The notes beneath the pieces were generated by a model. That model was not told where the DNA came from. It did no database searches and saw only the letters and a list, made by a program, of their open reading frames with translations. The position numbers and the translations under genes were made by a program. This document shows, in pieces, positions 17,153 through 17,382 of a stretch of DNA of 64,000 nucleotides (position 1 is the first letter of the stretch; each line of letters opens with the position of its first letter). This DNA is from Escherichia coli (lineage in GTDB: Bacteria > Pseudomonadota > Gammaproteobacteria > Enterobacterales > Enterobacteriaceae): assembly GCF_003790525.1 (NCBI RefSeq), contig NZ_CP033635.1; one strand, written 5' to 3'.

Positions 17153-17382
17153 AATTAATTAACGTCATCAGATCCGAAAATAACGAGAATATTTCAGTCT
17201 CTCATCCTGTTGCGCTCCTGTCATGTGCATTGCTTCATATCATCACTGGCGCAAGGAGCGCGCAGGGGGCGGCCAATCGCCGCCGCCCCCTGCACCCCCG
17301 GGCTCTGGCGAACAAAATCGCCGCTGCGCGGTACCCTCGGCTTATCCCTTGCGGCTACCGGGTCGGGCGCGAGGTAACATAT

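Follow-up and report, generated by a model that had tools for sequence, protein, structure and literature searches.

The GC-rich hairpin beside an IS1111-type insertion sequence in Escherichia coli is the core of the TRIP1c/RRS-dusC repeat, and its fold probably stalls lagging-strand polymerase

What is the GC-rich hairpin that lies between yohP and an insertion sequence (IS) in Escherichia coli, and does it have anything to do with the element beside it? The question is raised by a 64,000-nucleotide stretch of contig NZ_CP033635.1 (assembly GCF_003790525.1; hereafter, the window), in which an initial annotation had marked a perfect 12-bp GC-rich stem with an 8-nt loop, about 90 bp outside an inverted repeat at 17383, and had proposed that it could be part of the target of the IS, the native terminator of yohP, or an unrelated intergenic repeat. 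We find that the hairpin is real and native, that it is already known as the core of a repeat called TRIP1c or RRS-dusC, and that it is neither the IS target nor a terminator.

The stem arms are GCAGGGGGCGGC (17262-17273) and GCCGCCCCCTGC (17282-17293), which form 12 perfect pairs, 11 of them G-C, around the 8-nt loop CAATCGCC (17274-17281), and the whole hairpin (17262-17293, either strand) constitutes domain 2 of the repeat. Allowing up to 3 mismatches, this pattern had a single occurrence in the window and none in 100 dinucleotide-preserving shuffles, which bears out the geometry first described. The 64 kb contained four perfect inverted repeats with arms of 12 bp or longer separated by at most 40 nt, and this hairpin was the sole GC-rich one; a scan with the arm distance limited to 12 misses it, an effect of the parameter. 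When the 46-nt stretch that holds the hairpin was folded as single-stranded DNA (ssDNA), the minus strand reached -20.9 kcal/mol (z -4.2) and the plus strand -17.7 kcal/mol (z -3.7). The hairpin starts 109 nt past the yohP stop codon (17152) and ends 87 nt before the first base of the IS (17381), so its position, too, had been given correctly.

The flank that carries the hairpin is older than the IS. Sequence 17153-17400 matched IS-free yohP-dusC alleles in 3393 E. coli genomes with ∼97.8% identity over 228 bp, and all of the matches ended at 17380. The K-12-type empty alleles read ...GCAGGGGGCGGCCAATCGCCGCCGCCCCCTGC...GGGCGCGAGGTAAC-AT-CCCTGTAAAACGCGCCC..., with the hairpin visible in them. 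Since IS-free alleles carry the hairpin in a flank that matches up to 17380, the hairpin is native and lies outside the IS, as could be decided by the comparison that the initial annotation had itself proposed. In K-12, the hairpin-bearing sequence is found at aqpZ-lysO as well as at yohP-dusC. The MG1655 annotation has no feature and no RNA gene at either repeat, but both are known from the literature, where TRIP1 repeats were named by Rudd (1999) and comprise TRIP1a (aqpZ-ybjE, now lysO), TRIP1b (putP), TRIP1c (yohG/yohI, now mdtQ/dusC), TRIP1d and TRIP1e (Li et al., 2024, PMC10888264). The Replication Risk Sequences (RRS) near lysO and dusC are, according to the authors who described them, TRIP1 (Pham, Wood, Dunbar, Cox, Goodman, 2024, PMC11194060). 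The hairpin flank is thus TRIP1c and RRS-dusC, one element under two names.

The window does not hold an uninterrupted 222-273-bp element between yohP/mdtQ and dusC. The IS splits the repeat at 17380/17381, leaving on the yohP side a TRIP1c-derived half with the GC hairpin (17202-17380, minus strand), which is 92% identical to K-12 TRIP1a, and on the other side a TRIP1a-derived half (18765-18924, minus strand; 96% identical to K-12 TRIP1a, with the flank match beginning at 18765), whose neighbour is lysO. The third suggestion of the initial annotation therefore needs amending: the hairpin does belong to an intergenic repeat, but not to one unrelated to the IS, because this repeat is the habitat of the IS. 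Other copies of the hairpin, which had been suggested as a further point to look for, are present at aqpZ-lysO, yohP-dusC and yegH-asmA, and the IS is found in such copies too. The yegH-asmA copy is a sixth TRIP1-like copy, divergent (∼85%), outside the five types of Li et al., and IS-bearing in some strains; in K-12 it is 5'-truncated and has lost the double hairpin, while a variant of the GC hairpin (GCCAGGGTGG/CCACCCTGGC) is kept.

The identity with RRS-dusC places the hairpin exactly at a mapped block to DNA synthesis. Pham et al. reported that a 20-mer able to form a G-quadruplex (G4), located on the lagging-strand template, blocks Pol I, II and IV in vitro at that site, that an RRS placed anywhere produces RecA/SSB-bound lagging-strand gaps of up to ∼2 kb, whereas an inverted RRS produces no gaps, and that in K-12 at least one RRS copy is conditionally essential and global supercoiling is affected (PMC11194060). 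The 20-mer, GGGGGTGCAGGGGGCGGCGG, has a single exact copy in the window (17280-17299, minus strand, 0 mismatches), and it consists of the G-rich arm of the hairpin (17282-17293) with GGGGGT on one side and 2 loop nucleotides on the other. GC skew of the plus strand was negative in 13 of 15 windows taken on both sides of the IS, which makes the minus strand, as in K-12, the template for lagging-strand synthesis. The corresponding position in strain SMS-3-5 lies in the right replichore in reverse orientation; since the inversion that this strain carries (discussed below) is symmetric about the terminus, the strand relation is kept after it.

We therefore consider it probable, at roughly 0.7, that the hairpin is the central stem-loop of the ∼270-bp GC-rich TRIP1c/RRS-dusC repeat, whose multi-hairpin fold in the minus strand stalls the lagging-strand polymerase. 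As a fork passes, the lagging-strand template would become single-stranded, and the G-rich arm and its surroundings would fold back, either into a 12-14-bp hairpin with the C-rich partner, or into the published G4, or both. The polymerase would stall at this fold and leave an ssDNA gap of up to ∼2 kb, which in the window would run to the right, over the remaining repeat and into the IS. The IS itself is a separate, later arrival, which its own RNA would have guided to the loop of another TRIP1 hairpin, hairpin 2. The block in vitro, the gaps in vivo and their dependence on orientation are results obtained by others on the identical K-12 sequence; for the IS-split copy of this lineage, continued function is predicted from that identity. 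If the hairpin of the split copy still stalls polymerase, the gap would expose the sense strand of the IS and, in uninterrupted copies, the target loop of hairpin 2 as ssDNA, and one might speculate that such exposure could open the site to a guide RNA.

The comparative anatomy of the repeat indicates that its fold has been maintained. Relatives were collected by scanning 100,044 species genomes with the invariant 18-mer of TRIP1 hairpin 1, followed by BLAST; the scan with this 18-nt palindrome also gave many unrelated chance matches (in archaea, Bacteroidota and rhizobia), and matches were used only if confirmed by BLAST or by a covariance model. Full TRIP1 copies were found in several Escherichia species, Kluyvera, Pseudocitrobacter and Enterobacteriaceae HGUT110. 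The consensus fold of 21 sequences consists of a long domain 1, in which two hairpins sit within covarying outer stems, followed by the GC hairpin and a third hairpin. Hairpin 1 (CAGCCCACAUGGAUGUGGGCUG, with an AUGGAU loop; 18785-18806, minus strand) is invariant in all family members by alignment and consensus fold. The third hairpin (GCGCTCCT...AGGAGCGC, with a variable loop; 17212-17261, minus strand) abuts the GC hairpin, and 3 of its 6 pairs have changed on both sides.

Across the 21 sequences, 98.3% of the cells were paired, compared with 94.8% in shuffles and 40-48% in slid controls, and pairs that had changed on both sides numbered 14, against 7.3±1.7 in shuffles, a value of 14 being reached in 0 of 500. 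Compensatory changes affect 4 of 8 pairs of the GC hairpin; because the yegH-asmA type is out of register by one column, which blurs column-wise counts for this hairpin, the stem of each sequence was also examined by itself. The stem occurs in TRIP1 as GCAGGGGGCGGC/GCCGCCCCCTGC, GCAGGGGGAGGA/TCCTCCCCCTGC and GCCAGGGTGGT/GCCACCCTGGC, plus G·U variants, and its loop GGCGAUUG is invariant except for a C substitution in one copy (GGCGACUG). Domain 1 contains 59 G·U cells and 1 A·C cell, which identifies the G-rich minus strand as the structured one. Folding of TRIP1a as ssDNA gave z values of -8.05 and -6.39 for the opposite strands.

A covariance model of domain 1 extended the family further. Full-length modules adjoin TRIP1 in Kluyvera, Pseudocitrobacter and HGUT110 (46-64 bits), and others occur in Edaphovirga (more than 25 copies) and Shewanella. 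In 15 of 15 modules from six genera, domain 1 is followed after 9-12 nt by a perfect 9-14-bp stem made of a G-run and a C-run, and the 15 carry 14 distinct arm sequences. A third hairpin comes next in those modules, ending ...GGAGCGCAAC or ...GUGAACGGAAC, its counterpart there reading CGTTCAC...GTGAACG. Edaphovirga cremea DSM 105170 (L048-L058) carries a high-copy relative of TRIP1, with at least 25 modules like TRIP1 domain 1 at 11 loci (20-48 bits). They form composite arrays of ∼660 bp, tandem and inverted, that are built from sub-repeats of 186 bp and ∼300 bp, and each is followed by a GC hairpin of its own.

Several observations weigh against a lagging-strand role for this fold. In the window, 1.4 kb of IS splits the repeat, which prevents formation of the complete fold. 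Both strands have the same 12-bp stem, but the published block differs between strands, and therefore the stem needs a strand-specific contributor beside it; this may be the remaining fold, a G·T-extended stem or a G4. A function at the RNA level would account equally well for the covariation and for the G·U asymmetry. Finally, about half of E. coli genomes have TRIP1c in the opposite orientation (2952 forward, 2789 reverse; Li et al., PMC10888264), the orientation that yields no gaps (PMC11194060), which makes a universal lagging-strand role doubtful. This opposite allele is common (it is seen, for example, in strains 30COLEC and KN13-4; L004 1960-2355, L005 1960-2357), has different spacer flanks, and places the G-rich strand on the leading-strand template.

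The best-surviving alternative is the one put forward by Pham et al., in which a pure G4, built from the tracts GGGGG/GGGGG/GG/GG on the lagging-strand template, blocks the polymerase, so that the C-rich arm and the hairpin would be incidental. It would account for the asymmetry: a G4 predictor scores the G-rich strand only, the block is stronger on the G-rich than on the C strand (PMC11194060), and a stem shared by the two strands does not alone account for this difference. Conservation speaks for the other structure. TRIP1 and the 15 homologous modules all lack a canonical three-tetrad motif, and a two-tetrad motif occurs in 5 of the 15, when loops of up to 7 nt are allowed, a pattern outside which longer-loop or bulged G4s fall. 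The C-rich arm, on the other hand, has been kept complementary through 14 arm sequences and through the compensatory changes in TRIP1, which would be unexpected if the G-tracts alone mattered, and G4 folding would face competition from a cis-complementary arm at a distance of 8 nt. We therefore lean towards the hairpin rather than the G4 as the selected structure, and regard a G4 acting alone as unlikely, although it remains the strongest competitor. The word hairpin is absent from the RRS paper, which does not consider a hairpin model (PMC11194060).

The only analogue cited by the RRS authors is the pilE G4 of Neisseria gonorrhoeae (PMC11194060), which resembles TRIP1 in being a G-rich structure of one strand that disturbs replication and leads to a gap. 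The pilE G4, however, is of the canonical three-tetrad kind and has no cis-complementary arm, whereas the TRIP1 tracts of G5, G5, G2 and G2 are contained in a perfect hairpin. The mapped polymerase block thus coincides with a perfect hairpin in which complementarity, unlike G4 potential, has been preserved from genus to genus, and the two models predict stop sites ∼20 nt apart, a measurable difference, which offers the RRS field a cheap and decisive experiment.

A function at the RNA level is a weaker alternative. Here the minus-strand TRIP1 transcript would be a TwoAYGGAY-type RNA, perhaps a binder of a CsrA-like dimer through hairpins 1 and 2, and the GC hairpin would serve as its 3'-proximal stabilising stem, acting as an exonuclease barrier. 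The Rfam TwoAYGGAY model matches the minus-sense strand of the IS-free K-12-type yohP-dusC and aqpZ-lysO copies with 30.9 and 30.6 bits, and reaches 49.2 bits, above the gathering score, in the adjoining modules of Pseudocitrobacter and Kluyvera; reciprocally, our TRIP1 domain-1 model recovers those modules at full length (52-64 bits) and the core of TwoAYGGAY RNAs from Lachnospiraceae. A 24-nt stretch, the hairpin-1 22-mer plus AG, is identical to the Lachnospiraceae RNAs. TwoAYGGAY has been proposed as a CsrA binder (PMC4333381), and the hairpin-2 loop UUACAGGGAUGU fits the CsrA SELEX consensus RUACARGGAUGU. The loop of hairpin 1 is AUGGAU, and that of hairpin 2 is AGGGAU in Escherichia and AUGGAU in Kluyvera genomosp. 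3 and Enterobacteriaceae HGUT110, so that the last two have AUGGAU in both. The excess of G·U over A·C cells and the location of the element, mostly just 3' of a stop codon, would also suit an RNA.

Against this stand the scores of the E. coli copies, which are under the Rfam gathering score of 43 (E ∼0.08-0.09), and the promoter and terminator scans of both K-12 copies, in which nothing could be attributed to the element; its hairpin has no U-tract. No CsrA CLIP peak was listed for dusC or ybjE in the tables of Potts et al. (2017), a weak negative because peaks are assigned to genes, and MG1655 has no RNA gene annotated there. Direct experiments found a DNA-level effect that is independent of transcription (PMC11194060). 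We consider the RNA reading improbable, more so than the G4 acting alone. A TwoAYGGAY covariance-model search of the window gave no match, the domain being split by the IS.

TRIP1 and TwoAYGGAY (RF01731; Weinberg et al., 2010) are alike in having two adjacent AUGGAU-type hairpins inside long outer stems, besides the 24-nt identity. They differ in that E. coli TRIP1 scores 31 bits against a gathering score of 43, has an AGGGAU loop with a decayed inner stem in hairpin 2, and carries the GC hairpin and third hairpin in addition; moreover, TwoAYGGAY is filed as an RNA, whereas the evidence for TRIP1 function is at the DNA level. Bona fide TwoAYGGAY RNAs in metagenome-assembled genomes of Lachnospiraceae (L033 1531-1694, L077 901-1066, L078 4318-4481; 72-79 bits) contain the 24 nt CAGCCCACAUGGAUGUGGGCUGAG, identical to hairpin 1 of E. 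coli TRIP1. To find this identity in another phylum is striking; it might reflect horizontal transfer or strong constraint on a ligand site.

The remaining alternatives concern the IS and transcription termination. The ends of the flank matches and the empty sites delimit the IS to 1384 bp (17381-18764, minus strand), flanked by the dinucleotide AT on both sides (17379-17380 and 18765-18766, the latter opening the TRIP1a-derived half). It encodes a 341-amino-acid transposase (17654-18679, minus strand) with the Pfam domains DEDD_Tnp_IS110 (PF01548, 3e-15) and Transposase_20 (PF02371, 1e-24). The inverted repeat that had been noted at 17383 is its subterminal inverted repeat ATGGACGCTCC (17383-17393), with a partner, GGAGCGTCCAT, at 18748-18758. 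Because it has subterminal inverted repeats and a non-coding region of 273 nt 3' of the transposase gene, the element was assigned to the IS1111 type of the IS110 superfamily. A seekRNA produced from that region in IS1111 elements pairs with both target strands, the top-strand match coming first (PMC11187229).

A putative target-binding loop of such a seekRNA, or bridge RNA, lies at 17509-17543 (minus strand). Its candidate guide, GAGGUAACA (17535-17543), is complementary to the top strand TGTTACCTC that abuts the insertion point, matching 17371-17379, and lies within the 5' side of an internal loop that encloses the small hairpin GGGC-AAGUUA-GCCC (17520-17533); the 3' side of this loop, GUAGAGGAUGA (17509-17519), resembles the other target strand, TACAGGGATG. 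The estimated chance of the 9-nt top-strand match is ∼0.02-0.03; the bottom-strand match has only 5 contiguous nucleotides, and the guide is invariant in all copies. The architecture and the order of the guides in this putative loop match those described for IS1111 seekRNAs (PMC11187229).

The site itself is the loop of TRIP1 hairpin 2. The halves of the stem of this hairpin, GGGCGCG (17365-17371) and CGCGCCC (18777-18783), now lie on either side of the IS, and the empty sites read GGGCGCG-AGGTAACATCCCTGTAAAA-CGCGCCC. The IS was present in 179 of 5426 genomes, the set used for all genome counts that follow, in 1-4 copies each, and on chromosomes the site was always GAGGTAAC-AT-CCCTG in this loop; in the window, the half-site GAGGTAAC and the core AT span 17371-17380. 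Six chromosomal contexts (yohP-lysO, aqpZ-dusC, asmA-yegH twice, yohP-dusC and an inverted yohP-dusC allele) had the same site, with an identical half-site, and the same orientation relative to TRIP1, and in these contexts there was no long target duplication, the core AT alone standing on both sides.

Two insertions were informative in other ways. On plasmid NZ_CP076707.1 (L013, flanks of 1501-2817), a diverged copy (96.8%) lies outside any TRIP1, preceded by ctgtGAGGTAACAT and followed by ATtccgg; this natural off-target site shares with the chromosomal target just the 10 nt matched by the guide, which supports the guide assignment. In the inverted TRIP1c allele (L012, flanks of 1501-2884), the empty core is GT (GGTAAC-GT-CCTTG), and after insertion the left junction is GT and the right AT, the outcome predicted for exchange of the core between donor and target and not for its duplication.

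That the GC hairpin forms part of the recognised target is therefore highly improbable. In its favour, elements of the IS1111/IS110 type are often found in folded repeats such as REP and attC (PMC11187229), and on chromosomes this IS was found in TRIP1 copies only, so the idea that it inserts specifically into a palindrome-rich repeat holds. The recognised site, however, lies 87 bp off, in the loop of another hairpin; the sole match of at least 9 nt between the non-coding regions of the IS and the target is GAGGUAACA at the junction, which leaves the GC hairpin untouched; the plasmid insertion has no hairpin nearby and only GAGGTAACAT, directly before the IS and AT, in common; and insertions adjoin all three stem variants. 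The target of the IS is the hairpin 2 loop. Equally remote is the possibility that the hairpin serves as the native intrinsic terminator for yohP or, in the opposite direction, for dusC. Although a very stable GC-rich stem stands in a convergent spacer past the yohP stop codon, the tails that follow it (plus strand, ACCCCCGGGC; minus strand, GCGCTCCTTG) contain no T-run, a terminator scan of the K-12 yohP-dusC and aqpZ-lysO spacers found nothing, and the same hairpin occurs at the yohP-less loci aqpZ-lysO and yegH-asmA and in either orientation at yohP-dusC.

Compared with the IS1111 types ISEc11, ISPa11 and ISKpn4 (Siddiquee et al., 2024, PMC11187229), the element is alike in its 341-amino-acid DEDD transposase, subterminal inverted repeats, long non-coding region 3' of the transposase gene, putative top-strand guide 5' of the bottom-strand match, folded-repeat target and single fixed orientation. 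It differs from ISEc11, whose target is GTGAAAATACTG, in using GAGGTAAC-AT-CCCTG in TRIP1, and from these types in its short bottom-strand match (GGAUG, or UAGAGG-AU with a bulge); its activity is predicted from these features. Neither the guide nor the inverted repeat sequences occur in the supplements of the seekRNA paper (PMC11187229), and we leave the IS without a name. REP/BIME sequences with IS621 or ISPa11 insertions are similar, as GC-rich palindromic intergenic repeats after stop codons that serve as landing pads for the IS110 family, but TRIP1 is ∼270 bp long, occupies fixed loci with 1-5 copies in each genome, shares no sequence similarity with REP, and has a published replication phenotype. 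The IS would represent a natural seekRNA/bridge-RNA system restricted to ∼1-5 genomic targets per genome.

The chimeric nature of the split repeat connects the IS to a large chromosomal rearrangement. The 2 kb around the hairpin are 100% identical to phylogroup-F-type strains such as SMS-3-5, in which the gene order is mdtQ-yohP-[IS110-family transposase]-lysO-hcp, and for SMS-3-5 a 1,313,407-bp inversion between TRIP1a and TRIP1c has been reported and attributed to TRIP1 by Li et al., who also describe orientation polymorphism of the repeats (2024, PMC10888264). The window contains one junction, yohP joined to lysO, of this ∼1.3-1.4-Mb inversion across the terminus. This junction carried the IS in 112 genomes and was without it in 0, while the reciprocal junction, aqpZ-dusC, carried it in 97 and lacked it in 1. 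Many genomes have both, as does SMS-3-5, at 910 kb and 2314 kb (L098 8069-9094 corresponds to 2314-2315 kb). The single IS-less aqpZ-TRIP1-dusC junction is that of KFu014 (NZ_CP091712.1, 2927450-2928313), which is 100% identical to the window and has one IS copy, and suggests a precise loss of one IS after the inversion that regenerated an uninterrupted chimeric TRIP1.

Because the left half of the repeat in the window is of TRIP1c type and the right half of TRIP1a type, the crossover would have occurred within the IS, and recombination between two IS copies is a more likely origin of the inversion than recombination between TRIP1 repeats. The papers of Li et al. and Pham et al. contain no mention of this IS. 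The terminus inversion is almost always accompanied by a putatively RNA-guided IS at both junctions, and this changes its likely mechanism.

In this lineage, both of the RRS copies, TRIP1a and TRIP1c, are cut by the IS, and the half with the hairpin, or G4, is intact in both (window 17262-17299; aqpZ-side copy of SMS-3-5, L098 ∼7600-8000). Since K-12 conditionally requires at least one RRS, either the hairpin half suffices or the RRS requirement is strain-specific. Natural strains in which both conditionally essential copies are cut, with this half intact, amount to a ready-made dissection of the part that is needed.

Set against the published descriptions of TRIP1/RRS, the locus has TRIP1c/RRS-dusC as its left flank and TRIP1a/RRS-lysO as its right flank, the exact block site, the G-rich strand on the lagging-strand template, and an inversion junction of the SMS-3-5 type; it departs from them in that the repeat is chimeric and interrupted by an IS of 1384 bp, and in that neither paper mentions the hairpin nature of the G4 arm or its covariation. 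The hairpin itself is already known, as part of a repeat that was described in 1999 and that, as work of 2024 demonstrated, stalls replication and shapes chromosome topology. The new leads are the conservation of the hairpin as opposed to the G4, a TRIP1-specialised IS at both inversion junctions, lineages with both RRS split, and the TwoAYGGAY-like kinship, and through them three separate literatures connect at this site. A single account would join these leads: the selected structure of the RRS G4 site would be the hairpin, within a tripartite single-strand fold; TRIP1/RRS would be the Escherichia branch of a far wider family of structured TwoAYGGAY-like repeats (Kluyvera, Pseudocitrobacter, Edaphovirga, Shewanella) with a core in common with Lachnospiraceae; and an RNA-guided IS1111-type element specialised on the hairpin 2 loop would have interrupted the two RRS copies of ∼100 sequenced E. 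coli genomes, with no obvious sign that this is lethal, and its copies would have provided the homologous sequence behind the 1.3-Mb inversion across the terminus. We put this combined account forward tentatively, at less than even odds.

Around the repeat, yohP (17069-17152, plus strand; 27 amino acids) is an open reading frame that converges on the structured strand of TRIP1c. In the 3' region of yohP, just outside TRIP1c, the only Rfam match on the window was a weak one to AgvB (17175-17235, plus strand; 22.9 bits against a gathering score of 56, E 0.19), which was treated as chance. An identity of the repeats with the small RNAs RybD and RyeF, a guess from map-based names, was dropped, being without support in the literature, and MG1655 annotates neither locus. 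On the other side, to the right of the IS, lies the promoter of lysO (ybjE) described by Shimada et al. (2014; TTGACG...TGTAAT), with its hexamers at 18837-18842 and 18863-18868 and the -35 hexamer inside the conserved end of TRIP1a, and this promoter is intact in the window.

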